Of a stretch of 64,000 bases of DNA, positions 1,967 to 39,818 are shown piece by piece (position 1 is the stretch's first letter; each line of letters starts with the position of its first letter). The notes under the pieces were generated by a model, which was given only the letters and a program-made list of their open reading frames with translations, did not search any database and had not been told where the DNA came from. The stretch covers positions 160,001-224,000 of the forward strand of contig JAVJQW010000023.1 of assembly GCA_040218735.1 (NCBI GenBank), in the 5' to 3' direction. The position numbers and the translations under genes are program-made. Origin of the DNA: Deltaproteobacteria bacterium. GTDB taxonomy: Bacteria > Myxococcota > Kuafuiibacteriia > Kuafuiibacteriales > Kuafuiibacteriaceae.

Positions 1967-2671
1967 ATGAGCGCCCCCACCCGCGCCGCGTTGGACTCGA
2001 AGCGCTTCGGCGTGGAGGTGTTCCGCAGCCACGTCGAGGACGCGGACGACGCAACCGCCGCGATCGCTTGCGACGCGGACCTCGTCATCACCCGCGTCCG
2101 CACCCACGACGTCGGACTCGTGCAGCGCCTCGAAGGCGCCGGCTTCTTCCTCACCGACACGCTCGTCTACTTTCGTGGAGAGACCGCGTCGTTCGCGGCG
2201 CCCGGCTCCGTCGACGGCCTCCAGATTCGCGAGGTGCACGCGAAGGAACGCGCCCAGCTCGAAGACGTGTCGCGAGGCGCCTTCGCCGACTTCTTCGGGC
2301 ACTACCACACCGATCCTCGCATCGACGCGGCGGTCGCGACGGAGGGCTACGTCGAGTGGTCGTGCTCGGCGCTCGACTGGACGGATGGCTTCGTCCTCGG
2401 CGCGTTCGACGACGAAGTGCTCACCGGGTTCGCCACCGTGAAGATCGACGACGAGGCGGGGGAGATCGTCCTCAACGGCGTCGCGCCCAACTACCAGCGA
2501 CGCGGAATCTACGGCGCGCTCGTGCAGACCATCGGACACCGGCTCCGCGCGCGCGGCACGAATCGAATCTTCTCGTCGACGCAGATCCAGAACCTGGGAC
2601 CACAGAAGACCTGGGCACGCGCGGGGCTGCTCCCCGCCGAGTCCTGGTACACTTTTCACCGCTGGCCGTGA
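1967..2671 (+). CDS. GNAT acetyltransferase (WecD/RffC-like)
   Basis: LDSKRFG N-terminus, HYHTDPRI...YVEW, acetyl-CoA motif VAPNYQRRGIYGALV, STQIQN. Confidence 0.8.
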   Translation: MSAPTRAALDSKRFGVEVFRSHVEDADDATAAIACDADLVITRVRTHDVGLVQRLEGAGFFLTDTLVYFRGETASFAAPGSVDGLQIREVHAKERAQLEDVSRGAFADFFGHYHTDPRIDAAVATEGYVEWSCSALDWTDGFVLGAFDDEVLTGFATVKIDDEAGEIVLNGVAPNYQRRGIYGALVQTIGHRLRARGTNRIFSSTQIQNLGPQKTWARAGLLPAESWYTFHRWP

Positions 2672-2675
2672 GGCC

Positions 2676-4403
2676 TCACAGCCCGTGCTCGGCGAGGCAG
2701 GCTTCGACGTCGCGCGCCGTCGGTAGGCCGCACGCTTCGAGCACCGCGGCGCGACACACCGACGCATCCACGCTCCGCAGCGCGCGCTTCACCAGCGGTA
2801 TCGAGCCGCCGGTCATCGAGAGGCGCTCGAACCCGAGCCCGATGAGGAGCGGCGCTCGATTCGGGTCCCCGGCGATCTCTCCGCAGAGCGTCACCGGCTT
2901 CTTCGCCGCGCGCGCCGACGCCACGATGTTGGCGAGGATCCGCAACACCGCGGGGTGCGTGACGCCGTAGCGCGCGTTGAGCTCGTCATCGCTCCGGTCC
3001 GCGGCGAGGACGAACTGCAGCAGGTCGTTCGTGCCGACGGAGATGAAGTCGACCTCGTGCAGCAGGTGGTCGACGATCATCGCGGCGGCCGGGGTCTCGA
3101 TCATCACCCCCACGGGCACCGGCTGCGCCAGTGGACCATCGCGCGCTTCCACGCGCGCGCGTGCCTCCTCGATCAAGCGGCGCGCGTGGCGCACTTCGTC
3201 GACGGAGGTCACGAAGGGCAGCAACAACTTCACCGGGCCGTAGCGGCTCGCAGCGAGGATGCCTTCGAGCTGCTCGCCGAAGACGTCGGGATCGGCGAGG
3301 CTCCGCCGGATCGCGCGCTGGCCGAGCATCTCGTTCGCGGTCTGAATCGCGTTCACGTCGGCGAAGCTCTTGTCGCCGCCTTCGTCGAAGGTGCGGATCG
3401 TGACCTCGAGCCCGCCCATCGCCTCGATGACCCGCCGGTAGACGCGCGTGTGCGCCTCGGCGCCGTTCAGATCCGGCTCCTCGATGCGCAGGAACTCGGT
3501 GCGGTACAGCCCGATCCCCTCCGCGCCCTTCTCGAGCAGCGGCTGGACCTCGGGGGACACCTCGACGTTGCCGAGCAGGGTCACGCGCTGGCCATCGCGG
3601 GTCTGGGCGAGGGTGTCGCGATCCGCGAGGAGGACCTCGGCTTCTTCCCGCCGACGACGCGCGAGCGCTTCGTACGCCGCCGTGGTTTCGACGGAGGGCC
3701 GCAACACGACTTCGCCGCGCTCGCCGTCGACGATCAGCTCGTCGCCACTCCCGGCGTGGCGCATGATGCCTTCGGTGCTCAGCACACACGGGACGTCCAG
3801 CGCGCGCGCGAGGATCGCGGTGTGTGAAGTCCGCCCGCCGTGCTCGGTGACGAACGCGAGCGCCGCGAACTTGGCGAGCGCGACGGTGTCCGCGGGCGAC
3901 AGATCGTAGGCGACGATGATGGCGTCGTCGGAGACGTGGTCGAGCAGGTCCGTCGCCTCGCCGACGAGGTTGCGCAGCACACGATCCCCGACGATGTCGA
4001 CGTCGCTCCGCCGCTCGCGGAAGTAGTCCTCCTCGAGCCGCTCGAAGAGCCCCTTGATCTGCGCGACGGTGTCCTTGAGCGCCCACTCCGCGTTCTGGCC
4101 GTCGTCGAGGATGCGCTGGATCGTCGTGTCGCGGAGGGCGGCGTCGCGCAGGATCATCCCGTGCGCGGAGAGCAAGGCTTCGACCTGCGACAGCCCGCTC
4201 TTCGACGCGCGCTGCTCGAGCTCTTCGAGCTGCCGCATCGACGCTCCGACCGCGCGCTCGAAGCGCTCCTTCTCACGTTCGCGGTCGCCGTGCGCGACGT
4301 GATAGTGCGGCACGGTCACCCGGCGACGATCCACGAGGTGGACGCGTCCGAACGCGATCCCTGAGCACACCCCGACGCCCCGAAAGGTCCGCGTCAGGCT
4401 CAC
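2676..4403 (-). CDS. ptsI: PEP-protein phosphotransferase (PTS enzyme I)
   Basis: GGRTSHTAILAR phospho-His motif, GIGLYRTEF, GVMIETP, SVGTNDL, CGE. Confidence 0.97.
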   Translation of the reverse strand: MSLTRTFRGVGVCSGIAFGRVHLVDRRRVTVPHYHVAHGDREREKERFERAVGASMRQLEELEQRASKSGLSQVEALLSAHGMILRDAALRDTTIQRILDDGQNAEWALKDTVAQIKGLFERLEEDYFRERRSDVDIVGDRVLRNLVGEATDLLDHVSDDAIIVAYDLSPADTVALAKFAALAFVTEHGGRTSHTAILARALDVPCVLSTEGIMRHAGSGDELIVDGERGEVVLRPSVETTAAYEALARRRREEAEVLLADRDTLAQTRDGQRVTLLGNVEVSPEVQPLLEKGAEGIGLYRTEFLRIEEPDLNGAEAHTRVYRRVIEAMGGLEVTIRTFDEGGDKSFADVNAIQTANEMLGQRAIRRSLADPDVFGEQLEGILAASRYGPVKLLLPFVTSVDEVRHARRLIEEARARVEARDGPLAQPVPVGVMIETPAAAMIVDHLLHEVDFISVGTNDLLQFVLAADRSDDELNARYGVTHPAVLRILANIVASARAAKKPVTLCGEIAGDPNRAPLLIGLGFERLSMTGGSIPLVKRALRSVDASVCRAAVLEACGLPTARDVEACLAEHGL

Positions 4404-31337: not shown

Positions 31338-32468
31338 CTAACCGCGAAGCACCACGCGCCCGTCGTCGACGTCGACCTTCTTCGCGAGTGACTTCGCGGT
31401 GGTCTTCCCGTCCAAGATGACGAGGCCGGCCAACCGGTCGTGCTGCGCGTGGTTCGGATCGGCTTGCGCCGACGCGAGGCCTTCGGCGAAGGCGACGCGG
31501 CGCTTCTTCGCGATGACGTCGCCCGGCGCGTACGTCTTACCGAGCTTCGCATCGACCTCGGCGAGCACGGCCCCCACGGCGAAGTCGACGAAGTTCTGCT
31601 CCTCGGGGCCCTTCAACCACAGCGGGTGAGTCGGCCCGTCGACCTTCCACTTCTTCCCGTCCTTTTCGACCTTGCCGACCGTGTCCCCCGCGAGGCCGCG
31701 GTACGGATGATCTTCGAGCTCGGCGTACTGCGCGGGCGGGTGCGCCGCGACCGTCCCATCGCGCCGCGCGAGGTAGAGCTGCAGGTCCGGATCGTCGCTC
31801 TCGGCGAGCGCCGTCCAGAACGCAGCTTCGTCGAGGTGGGTGAGGTTCGCGACGACGTCGACGTCCACGTCGCGCTTCGCGCCGTGCAGTCGCGCGAGCG
31901 GGCCGGCCTTCTTCTTCAACATCGGCAGCTCGTGCGCGTAGAGCTGGTCCGCGAACCCGAGCAACATCTTGAGGCCGGCGGACTTGTGGTGACCGTCGAG
32001 GAGGACGACGAGCCCGCCCGGTCCGAGGACGACCGGCATCTTCTCGGCGTCGAGCAGCCGGAGCGCACGACCGAGGTCCTTCTTCACGTCGTTCTCCGCG
32101 AGCGCCTTCAACAGCTTCGGCACCTTCTCCCGCGCGCGCGTGAACGACAGCTGCGTCTGCCCGGGTCGCACGGCGAGGAACGGGACGCGGAGGGTGCTGC
32201 CCGGCTTCGCCTGGTGCAGGCGTTTGGCGAGCGCGTCGAGATCCACGAGGCCGGACTCGCCGGACGCGACGAGGGTGACGAGCTCGGGCGTGGTCATCGC
32301 GCCGAGGCGTGCGGTGAGCGCAGCGATCGACGGGTCGCCGCCGACGTCGGTGAGCGCGAGCGGCGGCGCGTCAGGCGCGAGGCGCGGCGCGGCGAGCGGC
32401 GCACGGCCCTGGATCCCGGCGGGTACGGGGATCGCCCCGCGCACCGGTCTGTCGAGGCTCGCCCGCAC
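31338..32468 (-). CDS. ParB-like (ParBc_2-type) nuclease domain protein
   Basis: VRPGQ, MPVVLGPGG..LLDGHH, FWTAL, LEDHPYRGLA, F(V)DF. Confidence 0.7.
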   Translation of the reverse strand: MRASLDRPVRGAIPVPAGIQGRAPLAAPRLAPDAPPLALTDVGGDPSIAALTARLGAMTTPELVTLVASGESGLVDLDALAKRLHQAKPGSTLRVPFLAVRPGQTQLSFTRAREKVPKLLKALAENDVKKDLGRALRLLDAEKMPVVLGPGGLVVLLDGHHKSAGLKMLLGFADQLYAHELPMLKKKAGPLARLHGAKRDVDVDVVANLTHLDEAAFWTALAESDDPDLQLYLARRDGTVAAHPPAQYAELEDHPYRGLAGDTVGKVEKDGKKWKVDGPTHPLWLKGPEEQNFVDFAVGAVLAEVDAKLGKTYAPGDVIAKKRRVAFAEGLASAQADPNHAQHDRLAGLVILDGKTTAKSLAKKVDVDDGRVVLRG

Positions 32469-32520
32469 GGTAGGACGTCATCGGCGATCGGGTGCCGCGC
32501 GTCCGTGACGTGGAGGTGAC

Positions 32521-32634
32521 AGCGGGACATTGTCACATTGCCCCACCCGCGCATTCGGGAGAGACCCGACCGAGACGACCTGCCTCAGCTTGGAGCCCTC
32601 GCCGCGCGGCGCGAGCGCTGGCACGCGCCCTGCG
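32521..32634 (+). promoter_or_regulatory. Putative sigma-54 promoter with upstream tandem repeat
   Basis: TGGCAC-GCGCC-CTGCG at 32619-32634, just before the GGAGG RBS of the OmpA gene. GACATTGTCACATTGCC repeat at about 32526. Confidence 0.5.
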
Positions 32635-32646
32635 TAACGCGGAGGC

Positions 32647-33261
32647 ATGAACACGAAACACATCCTCCTGTCCCTGTGCGTCCCGGCGACGATGATCGCC
32701 TGCTCCAGCAGCGCGACCCGCTCCGGCCCGAGCGCCACGCCGGTCCCGACCGAGCGCGCGGGCGACGGCCCCTCGCCGGTCGCCGACGGCTCGGGGACCC
32801 ACGTGGGCGTCAAGAGCAACCGAACCGGCGACGCGGACGGCATCGAGAAGTGGACCAACATCAACTACTCCAAGAAGACGCCGATGACGGCGAGCCTCGT
32901 GCGCGTCGACGCCGAGACCGCGAAGGCGTGCAACCTCGGCGAGCAGGAGATCTACTTCGCGTACGACTCCGCAAACGTCGAAGGGTTCGCCGCGGACAAA
33001 CTCTCCGCGATCGCGGACTGCCTGAAGAAAGACGACGGCATGATCGAGGTCATCGGCTACACCGACCCGCGCGGCAGTGACACGTACAACGAGGAGCTCG
33101 GCATGAGCCGCGCGCAGAGCGTCGCGAACGTCCTCGAGGCGAACGGCGTCCCTTCGAAGCGCCTCACGACGGACAGCAAGGGTGAGTCGGGCACGCTCGA
33201 GAACCCGGCCGGCTGGCCGATCGCTCGTCGCGTCGAGATCCGCGCGAACGGCGAAGCGTGA
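32647..33261 (+). CDS. OmpA/Pal-family peptidoglycan-binding lipoprotein
   Basis: Lipobox IAC; IYFAYDS, GYTDPRGSDTYNEELGMSRAQSV, RRVEI. Confidence 0.92.
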   Translation: MNTKHILLSLCVPATMIACSSSATRSGPSATPVPTERAGDGPSPVADGSGTHVGVKSNRTGDADGIEKWTNINYSKKTPMTASLVRVDAETAKACNLGEQEIYFAYDSANVEGFAADKLSAIADCLKKDDGMIEVIGYTDPRGSDTYNEELGMSRAQSVANVLEANGVPSKRLTTDSKGESGTLENPAGWPIARRVEIRANGEA

Positions 33262-33486
33262 TCACCGCGCGACGACGCTCACGATCTGATTTGTGTCTGC
33301 GCGCCAGGCCACGTTGACGGTTCGTTTCTCGTCGACCGCGTTCGCGACGCGGTCGACGAGCTCGATCGCGCCCGCGTCGATCCACAGCACGAGCGGCTCG
33401 CGACCGAACCGAACCTCGACGCGCCCGGCGTCGACGTCGGCGCGCATGCCGACGGCGCGGTCCTCGAAGTAGGACAGGTCGCTCAT
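33262..33486 (-). CDS. 74-aa protein resembling the protein-glutaminase pro-domain (candidate inhibitor/immunity)
   Basis: ATGA overlap with the upstream glutaminase gene. GRVEVRF...VANAVDEKRTVNVAWRADTNQIVSV. Confidence 0.65.
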   Translation of the reverse strand: MSDLSYFEDRAVGMRADVDAGRVEVRFGREPLVLWIDAGAIELVDRVANAVDEKRTVNVAWRADTNQIVSVVAR

Positions 33487-35570
33487 AACGATCGCTTCCC
33501 CGTCGCCAGGTCGGCGAGCGCCGCCAGCCCGATCCAACTCTCCGCGACGCTGTCCGCGTACGTCGAGTCGGACATCGCGAGCTCGTAACGGCGCGCCGGC
33601 TCCAGGAAGAACGTCGCGTACTGGTTGCGGTGGGAGAGGAACTGGTGCCCCCACTCCTCGAGGGTCATCGACGCGTCGGAGAACGTCGGGTCGACGATGC
33701 GGATCTGCACCTCGTCGCCCTCGCGCACGAACGCGACGGAAGCGACGTGGTACGTCCAGCTCTCCTCACTCCCCTTGGGCGTGAGGTACTCGCTGCCCAT
33801 CAGCATCCCCTCTTGCGGATACACGAACATCTTCGCCGTCGCGACACCTTGCTCCCGCAACCGCTCGCAGATGTTCTGCGCGCGCGCGTAACACCCGGTC
33901 TTCAGATACGACCGGTGCAGCCGGCGATCGGCGTGCGCCGCCTTCGCGACGGCGTCGACCTCCGCGCGGGTCGCGATGCGCCCGTTCGGCTCCGTGGAGA
34001 TCTCCTCGGCGCACCGCGTGAAGAGCAGGAGCCCGGGCACGATCGACTTCCCCGCCAACGGTGGCTCGCGATAGGCGCGGTCGATCGCTGCGAGCGAACC
34101 CTCGACGACCCACTTCGCCTCCTCATTCGATGAGAAGGGTGGTTCGAAGCTCTTCGGCGCCCCCGGCGCGGCGGGCAGCTCCGCGAGGCTCGCCGCGATG
34201 TTGTTCAGTCCAGCGATCATCGCCTGCGATCGACGCCGCAGCTCGGCGCGCGTGATCTTCGGGTGCGTCGGCTCCTCTTGGTGCCACAGCGCACCGCTGA
34301 GCTGCCGAGCGTCGGCGAGCACACGTCCGGTCTGCGCGTACAGGTCGTCGCGCGCCGCGTCGGGCGGTGCGTGGAGTTGGGCTTCGATCGTCTGGGTGAA
34401 CTGTTGATTCGTCGCCTCGAACACCGCGCCGATCTGCGCCTGGACGGCGCGGACCTCGCTGACCGATGCGGAACGATCGTCGTGTGCGAAGAGCGCGAGC
34501 GGCGACGTGTGAACACCGTCGCCGAGCAGCGCCTGACGGTTGTGTTCGAGGAGCACCTCGACGCCGACGTTCATCGTCGCGCCGTCGTCGTGCCGCATCA
34601 GCACTCCGCCGTCCGCGGGGTGGCCTTCGACGCGCCAGCCCCCCTCGACGATCCCGTCGTCGGGGTTCGGCGCGTACAGCTCGACCCCCACCGGGATCAG
34701 CGCGGGGTTCGCGGCGAGCAGCACCTCGGTCGTCGCCGAGCGCACGCTGTCGCCCTTCGCGAGGAGCACCACCCCGCTGCGTTCGACGAAGCCCTCGATG
34801 CGATGACCGGGCACGCCGCCGTGCGCGACGCTCTGCCCGGCGGAGAAGATCTGGGAGGCGATGCTCTCGGCGAGCGGCGGTGCGCGCAGATCGAGTGGGG
34901 TCTGCGTCTCGATGACGTGGGCCTTCAGCGGCTCCGTCATCAGCTCGCCGTTGTAGTGCGCGAGGAGACCGGCTTCGTCGTCCCGCAACGAGCCGTCGTG
35001 CATTCGAACGCGCACCTGACCATCCGGGGTCAGCGCATGAATCGTGCCCTCCCCCGCGCCCGTCCGGACCCGCGCGCCGAACCGGAAGAACTGCGCGTAG
35101 TGCGAAGGCGGCGATGGCACGTGCGTTTTGACGGTCTCCCCGAGTACGGATCCGTCGAGGATCGCGAGGAGGTTCGCGACGGACGGCGCGCCCGACACCG
35201 CGGGGTGTTTCGCGAACCGCGCGAGCTCGGGGTGCGGCGGCCGAGTGACGAGCGCCTCGCGGAGCGCTTGGCGCTGCCCGTTCGTGAGCGTCGCGAGCTG
35301 GCGCTCGATCGTGTCGCGCTCGAGCGGACGAAGCCCGGGGCGCCCGCCGCGGAACGCTTCGATGCGTGGGCCGTAGCCGTGCGCGTCGACGAACGCGTGC
35401 ACGAGCGCGGGGAGCCCCCGCATCGCGGCGCGGGCGCGCACGTGATCGTCACCGGTGGAGGGCGGCGCGTCCGGCGCGGCCGACACCGGTTTGGACTTCG
35501 CGACGGACGGCTCGGGAGGCGGTGGAACCGATCGCACCTTCGGCGCGCCCCACGGTTTCCACCACGGCAT
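33483..35570 (-). CDS. Multidomain protein with C-terminal protein-glutamine glutaminase (deamidase) domain
   Basis: Cys-His-Asp triad motifs GCYARA, KMFVY, WTYHVA, RIVDPTF...TLEEW. No signal peptide. Confidence 0.85.
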   Translation of the reverse strand: MPWWKPWGAPKVRSVPPPPEPSVAKSKPVSAAPDAPPSTGDDHVRARAAMRGLPALVHAFVDAHGYGPRIEAFRGGRPGLRPLERDTIERQLATLTNGQRQALREALVTRPPHPELARFAKHPAVSGAPSVANLLAILDGSVLGETVKTHVPSPPSHYAQFFRFGARVRTGAGEGTIHALTPDGQVRVRMHDGSLRDDEAGLLAHYNGELMTEPLKAHVIETQTPLDLRAPPLAESIASQIFSAGQSVAHGGVPGHRIEGFVERSGVVLLAKGDSVRSATTEVLLAANPALIPVGVELYAPNPDDGIVEGGWRVEGHPADGGVLMRHDDGATMNVGVEVLLEHNRQALLGDGVHTSPLALFAHDDRSASVSEVRAVQAQIGAVFEATNQQFTQTIEAQLHAPPDAARDDLYAQTGRVLADARQLSGALWHQEEPTHPKITRAELRRRSQAMIAGLNNIAASLAELPAAPGAPKSFEPPFSSNEEAKWVVEGSLAAIDRAYREPPLAGKSIVPGLLLFTRCAEEISTEPNGRIATRAEVDAVAKAAHADRRLHRSYLKTGCYARAQNICERLREQGVATAKMFVYPQEGMLMGSEYLTPKGSEESWTYHVASVAFVREGDEVQIRIVDPTFSDASMTLEEWGHQFLSHRNQYATFFLEPARRYELAMSDSTYADSVAESWIGLAALADLATGKRSL

Positions 35571-35620
35571 CTCGTTGGAGTGTGCCTATCGGCGCCGATG
35601 TGACACCTCCTGAAGCGCCG

Positions 35621-35706
35621 GGGAACCGAACGGTTCCCGCGCGGGGAACCCGACGGTTCCCTGCGGCCCCGCGAGGCGTGTCGAGCCCCGTGGCACACCG
35701 GTTGCT
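35621..35706 (+). promoter_or_regulatory. Sigma-54 promoter with two upstream palindromic activator sites
   Basis: TGGCAC-ACCGG-TTGCT at 35691-35706. GGGAACC-N4-GGTTCCC at 35621-35638 and 35644-35661. Confidence 0.75.
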
Positions 35707-35719
35707 CTTCGGTCCGCGC

Positions 35720-36424
35720 ATGAACCCGAACCGACTCCTCTGCCTCGCCCCGATGTTGATCCTGACCGCCGCGTGCGGCGCCGAGCCCTCCCCCGTCGTG
35801 GTCGGCAACATCTCGACCCAGACCATGCGCCAAGCGCTGAGCGCCGCGTCCCACGACGACGACGAAGGCTTCGAAGGGGACGCCCGCTTCCAGCTCGACA
35901 TCGAGATCAACGGCGACCCACGCGCCGTCGCGCTCGACGTCGACGGCGCGTTCGCCGTCCAAGAGCTCCCGACCGGACAGCTTCACTTCGCGGTCGCGAT
36001 CGAAGGCATCCGCGGCACCCTCGAGCTCGACGACGTGCAGCCCGGCGAGGTGATCGAGATCGGCGTGAGCGCCGCGCCCGGCGCGCTCGAGCTTCGCGTG
36101 GTCCGACGTGACGCGCAGCTCGCACCCGAGGACGCCCCCGTCACGCAGACCGGCGACATCGAGATCCACGGCAAGGACATCGTGCATCACCTCCCGCACG
36201 GACGCATCGAAGGCGACATCATCATCCACGGCCACGACGTCACGGTGGTCGGCCCCGACTACTACGAATGCCGCGAAGGCGGACGCACCGTCGTCGACGG
36301 TCGCCTCATCGTGCACGGCAAGGACGTCCGGGTGATCAACGTCGAGTTCCTCCGCGGCACGCAGATCCACGGGCACGACGTGAAGGTGTACGAGCCCTGC
36401 CGCCGCCGCTACGGACGCGACTGA
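35720..36424 (+). CDS. Hypothetical lipoprotein with C-terminal beta-helix-like repeats
   Basis: Lipobox TAAC; repeated (I/V)HG(K/H)D(I/V) units. Confidence 0.72.
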   Translation: MNPNRLLCLAPMLILTAACGAEPSPVVVGNISTQTMRQALSAASHDDDEGFEGDARFQLDIEINGDPRAVALDVDGAFAVQELPTGQLHFAVAIEGIRGTLELDDVQPGEVIEIGVSAAPGALELRVVRRDAQLAPEDAPVTQTGDIEIHGKDIVHHLPHGRIEGDIIIHGHDVTVVGPDYYECREGGRTVVDGRLIVHGKDVRVINVEFLRGTQIHGHDVKVYEPCRRRYGRD

Positions 36425-37151: not shown

Positions 37152-38066
37152 TCACGGCAGGCAGATGTCGAATTGTGTCGACGCCGATTCGGGCGCGTAG
37201 CCGACGCCCTCCGCGACGATGACGTTTTCGATGGGCTGCCCCGTCCAGCGGAGCCCCTCGAAGGTCCCGACCGTGCACCGACCGCACGCTTCGGCCGACA
37301 CGGAGAGCGTGAGCACCGGCGTCGGCGCCGCGCTCGCGGCGAGGATGATCGGCTCGTGGAACGAGAGCTTCACGACGCTGATCGCCCCGTCCGCCACCGG
37401 CACCGAAGCGCTGTAACCCAGGTGACGAATCCCCGGCGGGTCGTCCCAGATCTCGGCGGCGATCGTGCCTTGGTTGGAGATCGCGTCGATCGTGCAGCCA
37501 TCCGCCGCGAAACCCACCGACCACCCCTGGATGTCCGTCGTGGGGTGCTCGATGGCGACCTGAATCGTCGCCCGCATCGTCCCCCGCTTCTGCGGCTCCA
37601 TCCACTTCCACGCGATCGGCGCGCAGGGTGCATTCTCCCAGTACTCGGAAACCGGATCACACGCACGGCTGTTGAAGCTTCCGCTCAACGGGTGCGCGCC
37701 CGTCGTCAGCCAGGACGTGATCGCGTGACTGTCGTCCGCCTCGACGCGCCCGTCACGATTGAAGTCCGCCGCGGGCTCACAGACCGGTGCGCGCCCCCCG
37801 CGATAGCGATGACTCTCGAGCGCGATCGCGTCGGCGACGTTGACGTGTCCGTCGCCGTTGATGTCACCGCGTTGAAGCTCTGCGTTGGGCGGAGCGCACG
37901 CTTGGGCGACCTCGATCGCGCCGGCGTCGCGCTCACCCGCCCCGCCGTCTCGTATCGAGCCGGCGTCGCGTTCTGCGCTCGGCGGCGAAGGTTCGTCGTC
38001 GGGGCAACCGGTCGTCGCGACAAAAACGATGATGGCGTAAGGTGCCAGTCGATGGGCGCGCATCAT
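37152..38066 (-). CDS. Lipoprotein with type I dockerin-like and cohesin-like domains
   Basis: TTGC lipobox; RGDINGDGHVNVADAI and AADFNRDGRVEADD; IQGWSVGF beta-sandwich. Confidence 0.75.
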   Translation of the reverse strand: MMRAHRLAPYAIIVFVATTGCPDDEPSPPSAERDAGSIRDGGAGERDAGAIEVAQACAPPNAELQRGDINGDGHVNVADAIALESHRYRGGRAPVCEPAADFNRDGRVEADDSHAITSWLTTGAHPLSGSFNSRACDPVSEYWENAPCAPIAWKWMEPQKRGTMRATIQVAIEHPTTDIQGWSVGFAADGCTIDAISNQGTIAAEIWDDPPGIRHLGYSASVPVADGAISVVKLSFHEPIILAASAAPTPVLTLSVSAEACGRCTVGTFEGLRWTGQPIENVIVAEGVGYAPESASTQFDICLP

Positions 38067-39818
38067 CCTCGTCAAAAGGTCTACTCGACATTCCGGACCG
38101 TCGGCAAGGTGCTCCTCGTCGTGACTTGCTTCGGCTGTCAGCCGCAGCGCGCGCTGGAAGTATCACCGCCCGCCGCGCCACGAACCCAGACCGAACGACT
38201 CGCGCTCCGGCAGTTTGCGTCACCCAACATCGGCGGCCTGATGAGTTACGAAGTACATCGCGTCGAGCTGAAGTCACACCCAGATCGAGAATTCTTGAGA
38301 CAACCCATCCGTACACCGGGCAGGCGGGTGTGGAATCCGCCGTCGCCGGTGGGGGAGCTCACGTCGCCGATCGTCGGCGCACGTTTCGTTCAGGAAGGCG
38401 GCGAGGAGATTCAGGCGGCACTGGATGCGCTCCCTCCCGAGCGTCGCGCGCTCGGGCTCGCGGGCATCTCCGTCGAGCTGCTCCACTCCGGCGACGAAGC
38501 CACGCGGATCTGTCGGCCGGCGCACGTCGAATTCGAGCTGATGCACGGCGGCCAGATGTTCGAGGCCCGCTACGAAGCGAACTCCTACTTCCTGCACACG
38601 GAGCCGGTGGTGGAGCTCTACGCGCTGAGCTCGACCTGCACCGACGCGCTCCTCGCGACTTCGGGCGTGGTGGCTGACGCGATCGACAACGGCTGCGCCC
38701 ACGCGGACCAGGCGGCCCACTTCGCGGTGGGGAGCCGGTGCCGCACGTGTCTGGAGATCGACGGCGACCACGGGCGCTGCGTCACCGAAGGTCAGTGCAG
38801 GACCGAGATGGCGCGCTCGGTGCTGGCGGACGTAGACGGCACTACGCAGTGGGTCGACGTCGTCCGCGCGCCGGTGCTGGCGTGCGCGCCGAGTTACATG
38901 GGTGAGCTGATCTACCTGACGCGTGACCTCGGCGACGACAACGAACCACCGGGGCCGTTCGACCACTCACTGATCGAGCAGCTGTGTTTCGAAGCGTGGG
39001 ACGACAGGACGAACGCATTGGAGATGTTCTGCGTGAATCAGCCGCCGCAGTTCATGGGGATCATCAACTTCGCGATCGCGGATCTGTTGATCGGACGCGT
39101 CGAGTATATTCGTCGGCCCGGCGCGACGAACGAGCCGTATCATCACCGCCTCTACCTCTCCGGTCCGATGGAGATCGACGGCATGACCTTCGTCGGAACG
39201 CCGCTGTACCCCGGAGCGCTCGCGGAGGTCTCCCAGACGCCGGGGTGGGGGTACGAGCCCTATGGGTTCCGGCCCGACGGCGAGAGTCGCGCGCGTGACT
39301 ATCTGGCGGTCATCGCGCTCAAGACGGCGACGACGATCGACGGCGTACCGATCGGAACCTACAACCACAACGTCTGCACCGACGCCGAGTGGAGGGGGCC
39401 CGACGCCATGGGCCGCTATCACTGCAAGCTCGACCCCGGCCCCGAGGGCCCGCCGGACCAAGAGGGTTGGGACTACGACTGGGCGGCGCAGCTCTACTCG
39501 GAGAACCCGTTCCGCCTCGACATCTTCCCGCTCGTCACCCTCGGCGCCACCGGCTACTACGACCCGAACATCCCCGGCGGCCACGTGCCGCACGTCCTCG
39601 GGACGTCGGTGCTCGCCAACCCGCTGTGGGACGATTGCGCGTGGCCGGAGCAGTTCGTCCCGGACGAGATTTCGAATCAGGACGGTGTTGGCTTCGACCC
39701 GTACACGTTCACGGGTCAGACGTACCGCTTCGGCAAGGACCCGAACCTCGACCTACGCGTCGTCCTGTCGACGAACTGGCGGCGTGGGTTCTGCTTCGAG
39801 AGCATCGACGGCTTGTAA
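38052..39818 (+). CDS. Hypothetical secreted Cys-containing protein (start uncertain, 38052 or 38109)
   Basis: 3' part of ORF 37173..39818 is coding-like. VLLVVTCFGC is a possible lipobox. Confidence 0.68.
   Translation: MGAHHPRQKVYSTFRTVGKVLLVVTCFGCQPQRALEVSPPAAPRTQTERLALRQFASPNIGGLMSYEVHRVELKSHPDREFLRQPIRTPGRRVWNPPSPVGELTSPIVGARFVQEGGEEIQAALDALPPERRALGLAGISVELLHSGDEATRICRPAHVEFELMHGGQMFEARYEANSYFLHTEPVVELYALSSTCTDALLATSGVVADAIDNGCAHADQAAHFAVGSRCRTCLEIDGDHGRCVTEGQCRTEMARSVLADVDGTTQWVDVVRAPVLACAPSYMGELIYLTRDLGDDNEPPGPFDHSLIEQLCFEAWDDRTNALEMFCVNQPPQFMGIINFAIADLLIGRVEYIRRPGATNEPYHHRLYLSGPMEIDGMTFVGTPLYPGALAEVSQTPGWGYEPYGFRPDGESRARDYLAVIALKTATTIDGVPIGTYNHNVCTDAEWRGPDAMGRYHCKLDPGPEGPPDQEGWDYDWAAQLYSENPFRLDIFPLVTLGATGYYDPNIPGGHVPHVLGTSVLANPLWDDCAWPEQFVPDEISNQDGVGFDPYTFTGQTYRFGKDPNLDLRVVLSTNWRRGFCFESIDGL

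Follow-up and report, generated by a model that had tools for sequence, protein, structure and literature searches.

Organization of the locus

The window, i.e. the whole stretch of 64,000 nucleotides analyzed, carries on its minus strand two overlapping genes encoding a modular protein of 695 amino acids, P0002, and, directly downstream, a protein of 74 amino acids, P0001 (Table 1). The stop codon of the former (TGA, 33485-33483) and the start codon of the latter (ATG, 33486-33484) have four bases in common, and a purine-rich GGGGAAG is found 8 nt upstream of the P0001 ATG. As read from the sequence, the ATGA overlap couples translation of the two genes. The start taken for P0002 is the longest within a 700-aa open frame. 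A scan of positions 33000-35900 for promoters and terminators found none, such scans being uninformative in so GC-rich a genome. The neighbours of the pair encode a ParB-like nuclease, an OmpA lipoprotein, a dockerin protein and a CarboxypepD_reg protein, with no secretion genes among them.

Table 1. Features of the P0002/P0001 locus (positions in the window)
Feature	Position	Strand	Basis or remarks
P0002, 695-aa modular protein	33483..35570, stop codon included	(-)	ORF list, translation, Pfam
N-terminal module, about residues 40-150 of P0002	35121..35453	(-)	alignment A5, 37-39% identity
Repeat region, about residues 160-350 of P0002	34521..35093, approximate boundaries	(-)	sister-protein match, weak internal similarity
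Gln_deamidase_2 (PF18626) core	33645..33941	(-)	residues 544-642; Pfam E 2.2e-16
Catalytic triad of P0002	Cys560 33891-33893; His608 33747-33749; Asp627 33690-33692	(-)	
ATGA overlap, P0002 stop and P0001 start	33483..33486	(-)	sequence ...cgttATGAgc...
P0001, 74-aa OB-fold protein	33262..33486	(-)	translation, structure model, fold search
P0001 loop, residues 26-33 (RFGREPLV), predicted on the catalytic Cys and His	33388..33411	(-)	complex model

P0002 ends in a putative protein-glutamine deamidase

A single Pfam family, Gln_deamidase_2 (PF18626), exceeded its cut-off in P0002, with 60.4 bits against a gathering cut-off of 25 and identical coordinates in the genome search. In the alignment, Cys560, His608 and Asp627 are in register with the protein-glutaminase structures PDB 2zk9 and 3a54, and the Cys, His and Asp of this triad are invariant across the 19 PF18626 domain sequences compared. 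The same domain and triad are present in pre-pro protein-glutaminase (EC 3.5.1.44; PDB 3A56, 3A54, 2ZK9) and in the Flavobacterium enzyme FBPG (8Z3I). The match to NF040782, the NCBIfam equivalog for the Chryseobacterium enzyme, was limited to profile positions 165-255 and reached 42.6 bits, below the 250-bit cut-off. The C-terminal domain of P0002 is a Cys-His-Asp enzyme of the protein-glutaminase type and presumably deamidates protein-bound glutamine.

The initial annotation had described a 695-aa protein ending in GCYARA, KMFVY, WTYHVA and RIVDP and overlapping a 74-aa ORF at an ATGA, all of which was confirmed in the sequence. The equivalent motifs it gave for the Chryseobacterium enzyme were seen in the PDB alignment (DGCYARAH, KQFVY, WSYHVA and RIIDP), and its statement that P0002 lacks a signal peptide agrees with a reading of the N-terminus (MPWWKPWGAPKVRSVPPPPEPS...) by eye, in which no hydrophobic core was seen. 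No cis pro-like segment was found inside P0002 (hhalign probability 0.3%), nor did Pfam detect PAAR, Rhs, LXG or any other named trafficking domain.

The part of P0002 preceding the enzyme contains a module that is common to proteins of sister genera carrying other C-terminal enzymes, namely a Fic domain (E 5.9e-13) or an EDR1/CTR1 peptidase-like domain (E 4.4e-12). When the 20 genomes of the class were searched with a profile of this module, 5 of them gave one match each, and one further match was weak. The repeat region that follows probably consists of three small beta-rich repeats: P0002 residues 226-349 align at two separate places of a sister protein (genome G002), and internal similarity within the region is weak. 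Searching a protein atlas with residues 1-520 returned no usable match, and a word-index search with the catalytic region, within a length band of 382-1217 aa, retrieved only the query and one 93% relative.

P0001 is encoded by a conserved gene of a tiny family

The P0001 ORF is judged from its sequence to be more than a chance reading frame, since its GC content by codon position is coding-like (0.74/0.42/0.91; 0.70/0.47/0.89 for the P0002 gene), the overlap is conserved in a congener (G011), where the small protein is 64% identical, the dN/dS is 0.49, and two further homologues exist. The large protein of the congener is 59% identical to P0002, and its gene shows the same -4 overlap, there with a GTG start. 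There is no sign of an arms race, either in the dN/dS values (0.42 for the large gene) or in the identities of the pair, 59-64%, which do not fall below that of a neighbouring gene (52%).

P0001 itself gave only chance-level matches against Pfam, NCBIfam and PDB sequences, as did profiles A1 and A2 against PDB, and at E up to 10 neither the protein nor these profiles had a PDB match to the pro-region. Of the 11 small proteins, none matched NF040782 and none had a meaningful match to any family. Among 1.84 billion representatives searched at E up to 0.001, seven matched P0001, including itself, two real homologues of 73-76 aa (P0005 and P0008, on contigs of 1,153 and 602 bases) and P0007, of 1,777 aa. 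The other three, P0004, P0006 and P0009, were discarded on reading as repeat-protein artefacts. With two real matches in a collection of this size, the close family of P0001 is tiny. For both P0003, which is 93% identical to P0002, and P0011, a 74-aa member of the P0001 cluster, the longest contig has 14,305 bases.

The arrangement of an enzyme gene followed by a small ORF recurs in seven other genomes, the congener and six genomes of the phylum that carry distant relatives of the small protein; among 31 PF18626 ORFs inspected outside the source genome, 7 are directly followed by an ORF of 73-86 aa. The second small-protein family aligns with that of P0001 at an hhalign E of 4.7e-5. When 401 genomes were searched with a profile, each of the eight strong matches (E below 1e-22) lay just downstream of a same-strand PF18626 match, a result that, the profile having been built from those same ORFs, shows only the absence of strong copies elsewhere. 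Scanning genome contigs returned the congener record alone, and scanning metagenome contigs gave no match. A signal-less PF18626 paralogue in the source genome (contig C66) has no small partner nearby, and the same holds for the related signal-less deamidases L017-L020; no second copy of the small protein was found in the source genome (profile A2, E 0.1), and profile A4 had no match in the genomes carrying L017-L020.

P0001 has the predicted fold of a glutaminase pro-region

The structure predicted for P0001 (pLDDT 90.7) was compared with 48,161 chains using VIA-align, and 3a54_A ranked first (Z 11.8, rmsd 1.5 Å, 71 residues). The matched segment, chain residues 20-92, lies inside the pro-sequence, whose length is given as 114 residues in the abstract of PMC6132073. 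Foldseek placed 3a56_B, 3a56_A and 3a54_A at ranks 1-3 (E 2.3e-4, query TM 0.83, rmsd 1.9 Å), and a second glutaminase, 8z3i, ranked eighth of the 48,161 (Z 9.7). Sequence identity to the pro-region in the structural alignments is 17-20%; their sequence similarity is not significant, and the link between the two is structural. According to the model, P0001 corresponds in structure to the pro-region of protein-glutaminase, but as a protein of its own, with the fold and topology of residues about 20-92 of 3A54/3A56. The alignment to 3a54 runs at an offset of +18 and sets R29 of P0001 at pro-region residue 47, which we take to be the site mutated in the A47Q entry 3a54.

Unrelated OB-fold chains came close behind, LT-II B subunits and SilF at Z 10.3-10.8, the best chains of other families lying 1.0-1.5 Z below 3a54_A. 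OB folds are common, with AB5 B subunits, SilF and SSB-type proteins at Z 7-10.8, and no sequence signal joins P0001 to the pro-region, so that the likeness might be convergent and P0001 an ordinary OB-fold protein, such as a nucleic-acid or sugar binder, merely encoded beside an enzyme. We consider such a coincidence very unlikely. The two pro-regions among the first eight ranks are independent of each other, and they take the first two ranks for a PAAR-linked relative of P0001 from genome G030 (3a54_A, Z 10.2; 8z3i, Z 8.8; next, 8.2). The pro-region alignment spans 73 residues of the model and 73 of the chain, whereas the other top matches span 79-91 chain residues; moreover, the small ORF was found exclusively with PF18626 genes across eight genomes, and its predicted interface at the active site, described below, surpasses all controls.

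The initial annotation had read the pro-region pattern in the sequence of P0001, with its GRVEVRF and VANAVDEKRTVNVAWRADTNQIVSV. That pattern was not statistically detectable, but the resemblance was recovered in structure, through the matches to 3a54 and 3a56, and pro-protein-glutaminase indeed heads the fold search.

Predicted placement of P0001 over the active site of P0002

Models of the catalytic domain in complex with P0001 scored 0.79 (0.69, 0.79 and 0.84 over the runs), compared with 0.00 for the best control; this mark was attained by 58 of 80 solved complexes and by 2 of 110 mismatched pairs. The runs have at least 87% of contacts in common, with a pLDDT of at least 87 for the partner. 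The predicted interface sets P0001 residues 26-33 against chain-1 residues 63-67 and 110-114, around Cys560 and His608, with Pro31 against chain-1 residues 64-67 and 111-114, which correspond to 558-561 and 605-608 of P0002. R29 and E30 of P0001 are invariant in four close homologues. The model, built with the alignments of this analysis, may be reproducing the solved pro-enzyme, in which an OB-fold piece of the same topology takes the position predicted here over the active site. P0001 probably binds and blocks the P0002 enzyme.

A protein with the pro-region fold could also act mainly in folding or export, either as a pro-region chaperone in trans or as an effector chaperone for a type III-like gate. 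In favour of such a helper, the genes of type III effectors are often accompanied by one for a small dedicated partner, and the genome contains seven FHIPEP matches, six of them full length. Against it, the contact predicted for P0001 is on the catalytic Cys and His, whereas type III chaperones bind to the N-terminal part, and a small protein of the same kind is found after a type VI PAAR toxin. A mainly chaperoning role is accordingly regarded as improbable. Helper role and inhibition by P0001 could coexist.

Genomic context of the enzyme and its relatives

In genome G030, one of the six with distant relatives of the small protein, the PF18626 enzyme is fused to PAAR (E 1.8e-14) and its gene comes immediately after one for VgrG (Phage_GPD, E 4.6e-64), giving the order vgrG-PAAR-toxin-small ORF, which is a type VI secretion layout; VipB is present in that genome. 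The source genome, which is 96.5% complete, yielded no VipB, Hcp or PAAR. A type III link based on the count of FHIPEP genes was considered and dropped, as all 20 genomes of the class have copies and those with the N-terminal module do not differ in copy number from those lacking it. No recognizable small immunity gene was seen after the sister genes encoding Fic and peptidase domains.

Several traits of polymorphic toxins are found at the locus: PF18626 is C-terminal here and follows PAAR in G030, the N-terminal module occurs with other enzymes elsewhere, and a small same-strand gene lies directly downstream with a 4-base overlap. No recognized trafficking domain or linked secretion-system gene accompanies P0002. 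Together with the missing signal peptide, as read by eye, the missing type VI genes, and a tight 4-base coupling like that of toxin-antitoxin operons, this would also suit a latent intracellular deamidase, from which P0001, as a regulatory inhibitor, would be removed upon a stress or phage signal in the style of toxin-antitoxin or abortive-infection systems. We hold this to be rather unlikely, since the same cassette is elsewhere fused to PAAR behind vgrG, and an N-terminal part of 500 residues including a module common to proteins with different enzymes is typical of delivered effectors.

The proposal of the initial annotation, that an equivalent of the pro-region acts in trans within a toxin-immunity gene order, is thus supported by the fold search, the model of the pair, which puts the P0001 loop on the catalytic Cys and His, and the conserved gene pair. 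As for recurrence of the pair in other genomes, a point it had raised for checking, small genes do lie beside homologous deamidase genes, once in a vgrG-PAAR array, but are absent at the C66 paralogue and at L017-L020.

Discussion

The enzyme of Chryseobacterium proteolyticum is made as one chain comprising a 21-aa signal, a 114-aa pro-sequence and a 185-aa mature enzyme, according to the abstract of PMC6132073. Protein-glutaminase is thus a secreted zymogen, whereas P0002 has neither signal nor cis pro-like segment and the plug is encoded by a separate gene; unlike protein-glutaminase, the catalytic domain of P0002 forms the tail of a 695-aa modular protein. In its gene order, the locus resembles type VI PAAR/VgrG cassettes and polymorphic toxins (Zhang et al. 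2012, PMC3482391), with a C-terminal toxin, a variable delivery part and a small downstream gene on the same strand, but differs from type VI cassettes in that P0002 has no PAAR. The terms 'glutaminase' and 'deamidase' are absent from the first 300,000 characters of the polymorphic-toxin paper PMC3482391.

Pairs of this general design exist for other enzymes. Much as proposed for P0002/P0001, the gene for a papain-like cysteine enzyme lies beside that of its specific, co-transcribed inhibitor in SpeB-Spi of Streptococcus pyogenes and staphopain-staphostatin of Staphylococcus aureus. In barnase-barstar, the producer protects itself from an exported, generally harmful enzyme by a small inhibitor in its cytoplasm, which obstructs the active site; barstar is not known to stem from a pro-region, and folds and chemistry are unrelated to those of P0002/P0001. 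SpeB and staphopain are secreted proteases that keep their own propeptides, whereas P0002 is deamidase-type and effector-like with no cis pro-region. In PMC2873492, Spi is called 'a propeptide analogue' with a suggested role in self-protection, and staphostatins are described as lipocalin-like, not propeptide-like. A literature search found no paper on a deamidase effector with a free-standing pro-domain partner.

Given an enzyme of the protein-glutaminase type and a separate product resembling its pro-piece, P0002 and P0001 are probably a toxin and its antidote. For this pair we infer deamidase activity on a target, inhibition and export. P0002, lacking a Sec signal, would be synthesized in the cytoplasm, and co-translated P0001 would bind its catalytic domain, laying the beta2-beta3 loop (R29-E30-P31) over Cys560 and His608 and keeping the enzyme silent in the producer. 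P0002 is built like a polymorphic effector, in which the N-terminal module stays constant, repeats follow and the C-terminal enzyme can be exchanged, and it is therefore most likely exported, the plug being left behind. We favour the reading of the cassette as a cytoplasmic modular deamidase-type effector silenced by a co-translated counterpart of the pro-region and likely exported, and we lean, with some reserve, towards the pair being an exported toxin with its immunity protein; P0001 would then serve as immunity protein or antidote. A broader and doubtful extension is that the pair represents one allele of an undescribed, class-wide effector family, in which an N-terminal module of ~110 residues would send a deamidase, Fic or EDR1-like peptidase domain to a route other than type VI, perhaps one of up to seven type III-like gates, and the separate pro-domain of the deamidase would be stripped at export, leaving an enzyme active without a protease.

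The N-terminal module in common points to such an effector family, and if this were true, the origin of an immunity protein would be tied to a zymogen pro-region. A protein-glutaminase-type deamidase would be added to the repertoire of bacterial toxin domains, together with an immunity protein matching in structure the pro-region of the enzyme's own zymogen form, so that two means of restraining a harmful enzyme that have been studied apart would be brought together. A plug that can come off would explain how a generally acting deamidase is tolerated in the cytoplasm and yet delivered active without a processing protease. As protein-glutaminase, an enzyme used in the food industry, is produced as a zymogen, a natural trans-acting plug might also give another route to its production or control.

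A glutaminase-type enzyme and its downstream gene

The large protein encoded at this locus, P0002, carries at residues 544-642 the Pfam domain Gln_deamidase_2 (PF18626; E 2.2e-16, 60.4 bits versus a cut-off of 25), which aligned with the Chryseobacterium protein-glutaminase chains 2zk9 and 3a54 with GCYARA, WTYHVA and RIVDP in register. Cys560, His608 and Asp627 were invariant in an alignment of 19 PF18626 domains from the phylum. The glutaminase-type C-terminus proposed in the initial annotation was thus borne out. The claimed absence of a signal peptide agreed with the N-terminus as read by eye from the translation, in which no hydrophobic signal core was seen. The closest relative of P0002 is the secreted pre-pro protein-glutaminase of Chryseobacterium, from which it differs in architecture; scoring 42.6 bits against the NCBIfam NF040782 equivalog cut-off of 250, it is not an equivalog of that enzyme. 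No pro-like segment was found inside P0002 (hhalign probability 0.3%).

The TGA of the P0002 gene and the ATG of the gene for the small protein P0001 have four bases in common (ATGA, 33486-33483), as had been claimed, and a purine-rich GGGGAAG lies 8 nt upstream of that ATG. The source genome (11.6 Mb, ~69% G+C) is 96.5% complete, and the window belongs to its contig C9. In the window, a ParB-like nuclease gene and the OmpA-family lipoprotein gene separate the pair from the gene for a 782-aa CarboxypepD_reg protein, whereas in a congener (G011) the small ORF directly adjoins the homologue of the latter, indicating an insertion or deletion between the two genomes. A gene for a dockerin-type protein is also found near the pair.

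Features of the locus and of related loci
Feature	Position	Strand or orientation	Evidence
P0002 ORF, 695 aa	35570 to 33483	minus	ORF list, translation
P0001 ORF, 74 aa	33486 to 33262	minus	translation
OmpA-family lipoprotein gene	end one base from P0001 stop codon	convergent	E 5.4e-17
ParB-like nuclease gene with OmpA lipoprotein gene	31338-33261	minus (ParB-like)	ParBc_2 E 1.4e-12
Lipoprotein-like gene	start 35720	divergent	
307-aa protein, dockerin type I domain	37152-38075	minus	E 4.3e-7
G030 gene 1, VgrG			Phage_GPD E 4.6e-64
G030 gene 2, 287-aa fusion			PAAR E 1.8e-14, PF18626 E 9.2e-24
G030 gene 3, small ORF, 84 aa			
L006 (genome G354), 84-aa ORF after the gene of a 448-aa canonical-looking glutaminase	~2309-2563	plus	
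L046 (genome G002), 311-aa protein-kinase-like gene	2419-3354	plus	Pkinase E 1.7e-10
FHIPEP (FlhA/SctV) matches, source genome	contigs C23, C59, C41, C70, C38, C9 (330842-332836, outside window), C16		

The P0001 ORF is a real gene. Its G+C content by codon position is 0.74/0.42/0.91, and the same gene pair, with the same 4-base overlap, is present in the congener. Between the two genomes the small and large proteins are 64 and 59% identical, with dN/dS of 0.49 and 0.42, respectively; with 52% identity for a neighbouring gene, the pair shows no unusual rate of evolution. When 1.84 billion representatives were searched exhaustively with P0001 by HMMER, 7 matches reached E <= 0.001: the query itself, two true homologues 76 and 73 aa long, three artefacts due to repeats and one 1,777-aa protein. 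A 93%-identical relative of P0002 and a 74-aa member of the P0001 cluster presumably lie on the same contig, the longest contig of both being 14,305 bases.

The small protein is predicted to fold as a glutaminase pro-region

P0001 matched no sequence family (Pfam, NCBIfam) and no solved chain in PDB sequence searches, profile search included. An AlphaFold2 model from a four-sequence alignment (pLDDT 90.7) showed an OB fold in the order strand-strand-strand-helix-strand-strand. In Foldseek searches of the PDB with this model, the pro-protein-glutaminase chains 3a56_B, 3a56_A and 3a54_A took the top ranks (E 2.3e-4, query TM 0.83, rmsd 1.9 A, identity 19-20%). VIA-align, a method independent of Foldseek, placed 3a54_A first among 48,161 representative chains (Z 11.8, rmsd 1.5 A, 71 residues), with model residues 2-74 mapping to chain residues 20-92. 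The other solved glutaminase, 8z3i from Flavobacterium, scored Z 9.7 at chain residues 36-109. Given a pro-sequence of 114 residues (PMC6132073), both ranges fall within it. OB folds being common, with AB5 toxin B subunits and SilF close behind (Z 10.3-10.8), the match taken alone is suggestive, not proof, of common descent. The proposal that the small ORF is a detached pro-region stood as regards predicted fold, with no significant likeness in sequence, the modelled link being structural only.

The last 201 residues of P0002 (19-row alignment) and P0001 (10-row alignment) were modelled together. The predicted complex scored 0.79 (runs 0.69, 0.79 and 0.84; best control 0.00), a mark attained among solved complexes by 58 of 80 and among mismatched pairs by 2 of 110. 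Independence from the solved zymogen cannot be claimed for this model: the pass may reflect the predictor's training on that pro-enzyme, and it speaks for likeness, not binding. At least 87% of contacts were common to the runs, with partner pLDDT of at least 87. The predicted interface joins chain-1 residues 63-67 and 110-114 (P0002 557-561 and 604-608) to P0001 residues 26-33; it includes Cys560 and His608, both contacted by Pro31 of P0001, so that modelling agreed with the pairing put forward earlier. P0001 R29 and E30 are invariant in four close homologues. By the structural-alignment offset of +18, R29 corresponds to pro-region position 47, the residue altered in the 'A47Q' entry 3a54, which we take to be a significant position.

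Distribution of the pair and a type VI layout

Of 401 genomes sampled from the phylum, 38 carried PF18626. Neighbours were surveyed for 31 PF18626 ORFs outside the source genome, at 30 loci; the remaining 20 of 50 matches listed had no locus. An ORF of 73-86 aa lay directly downstream in 7 of the 31 (gap -26 to +61 nt, -4 in four); six of these constitute a second family, A2, which matched the window family over 60 columns (hhalign E 4.7e-5, probability 68%). A joint profile gave 8 strong matches in the 401 genomes (E < 1e-22), all 8 just downstream of a same-strand PF18626 gene, an association that, the profile having been built from the same ORFs, shows only that there are no strong copies elsewhere. 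Five weaker matches included an orphan 70-aa ORF with no adjoining deamidase gene (G092).

In G030, the partner-bearing enzyme belongs to a vgrG-PAAR array (see table), and a gene for the VipB sheath protein (E 2.9e-119) is present in the same genome. The model of its 84-aa protein (pLDDT 84.9) again matched glutaminase pro-regions, at Foldseek ranks 1-4 and in VIA-align (3a54_A Z 10.2, 8z3i_A Z 8.8, next chain 8.2). Gene order, VipB and this predicted fold argue that, in one lineage or more, the enzyme and its plug probably serve type VI secretion as toxin and immunity protein. The toxin-immunity order claimed for the pair in the window, with the small ORF directly after the enzyme, recurs there.

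Recurrence of the pair held in part: it is found at the seven ORFs noted, that of the congener included, but a signal-less 293-aa PF18626 paralogue on contig C66 of the source genome is followed by a convergent gene instead of a partner, and a search with profile A2 at E 0.1 found no second plug-like gene in that genome. The relatives L017-L020 likewise had no partner nearby, nor did the joint profile match in their genomes. The C66 paralogue (L002), L017-L021 and L023-L026 share an unnamed N-terminal motif, roughly L-R-x-V-F-G-x-x-V-P-x-D then 'ASP..P'; proteins with this motif have a small partner ORF in some cases and lack one in others, including the paralogue.

Other PF18626 architectures were observed. 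The L006 glutaminase has a pro-like segment in cis, and the small-protein family weakly matched the segment just before its catalytic domain (hhalign E 5.5e-4, probability 30%). An 84-aa ORF 28 nt after it looks like the last ~85 residues of that enzyme encoded again as a separate protein, and this is a different, duplicated-module pair. In L007 (G100), ankyrin repeats (Ank_2 E 4.7e-14) come after the PF18626 domain, an architecture suggesting a eukaryote-directed effector. Seven loci, L027-L033 (genus g115 for six, g135 for the twin of L028), encode PF18626 proteins of lipoprotein type that end in a PPC domain (E 6.3e-15 in L030), lack a pro-like partner and are presumably secreted.

N-terminal module and export

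P0002 has no PAAR domain, and searches of its 96.5%-complete genome for VipB, Hcp and PAAR found none of the three; VipB was also absent from four other genomes with the pair. A module spanning residues ~40-150 of P0002 occurs, in a single copy per genome, in 5 of the 20 genomes of the class, with one weak match besides. In G002 it is followed by repeats and an EDR1/CTR1 peptidase-like domain (E 4.4e-12), and in G013 by a Fic domain (E 5.9e-13). Delivered effectors are built in this way, with a shared N-terminal module joined to interchangeable enzymes at the C-terminus, and from this architecture alone we infer that P0002 would be exported. These sister genes have no recognisable plug downstream; a kinase-like gene or an overlapping ORF without family is found instead. 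The kinase-like gene of L046, 13 nt after the G002 module gene, might encode a different sort of partner.

The source genome has 7 FHIPEP matches (6 full length) and 3 flagellin matches, and several of the FHIPEP copies may come from type III-like systems other than flagella. FHIPEP occurs in all 20 genomes of the class (1-7 matches each), and the number of copies in a genome is no guide to whether it has the module.

Relation to known systems

SpeB-Spi, in which a propeptide-like inhibitor is encoded beside a papain-like cysteine enzyme, offers a precedent, and staphopain-staphostatin one with an inhibitor of different fold (both PMC2873492). In the open-access main texts searched, no protein-glutaminase-type toxin with such a partner was described, protein glutaminase and type VI secretion were not treated jointly, and protein glutaminase and polymorphic toxins met only in passing mentions. 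The passage on PF18626 in PMC10318531 mentions only a Dot/Icm neighbourhood; 'glutaminase' and 'deamidase' are both absent from the searched text of Zhang et al. 2012 (PMC3482391).

Fold, complex model and pair conservation support the overall reading of the initial annotation, a glutaminase-type effector with a predicted pro-domain-like partner in trans. We favour reading the pair as a putative effector of deamidase type whose plug, resembling a pro-domain, has become a separate protein; it is a variant of two known kinds, toxin-immunity pairs and propeptide-like inhibitors.
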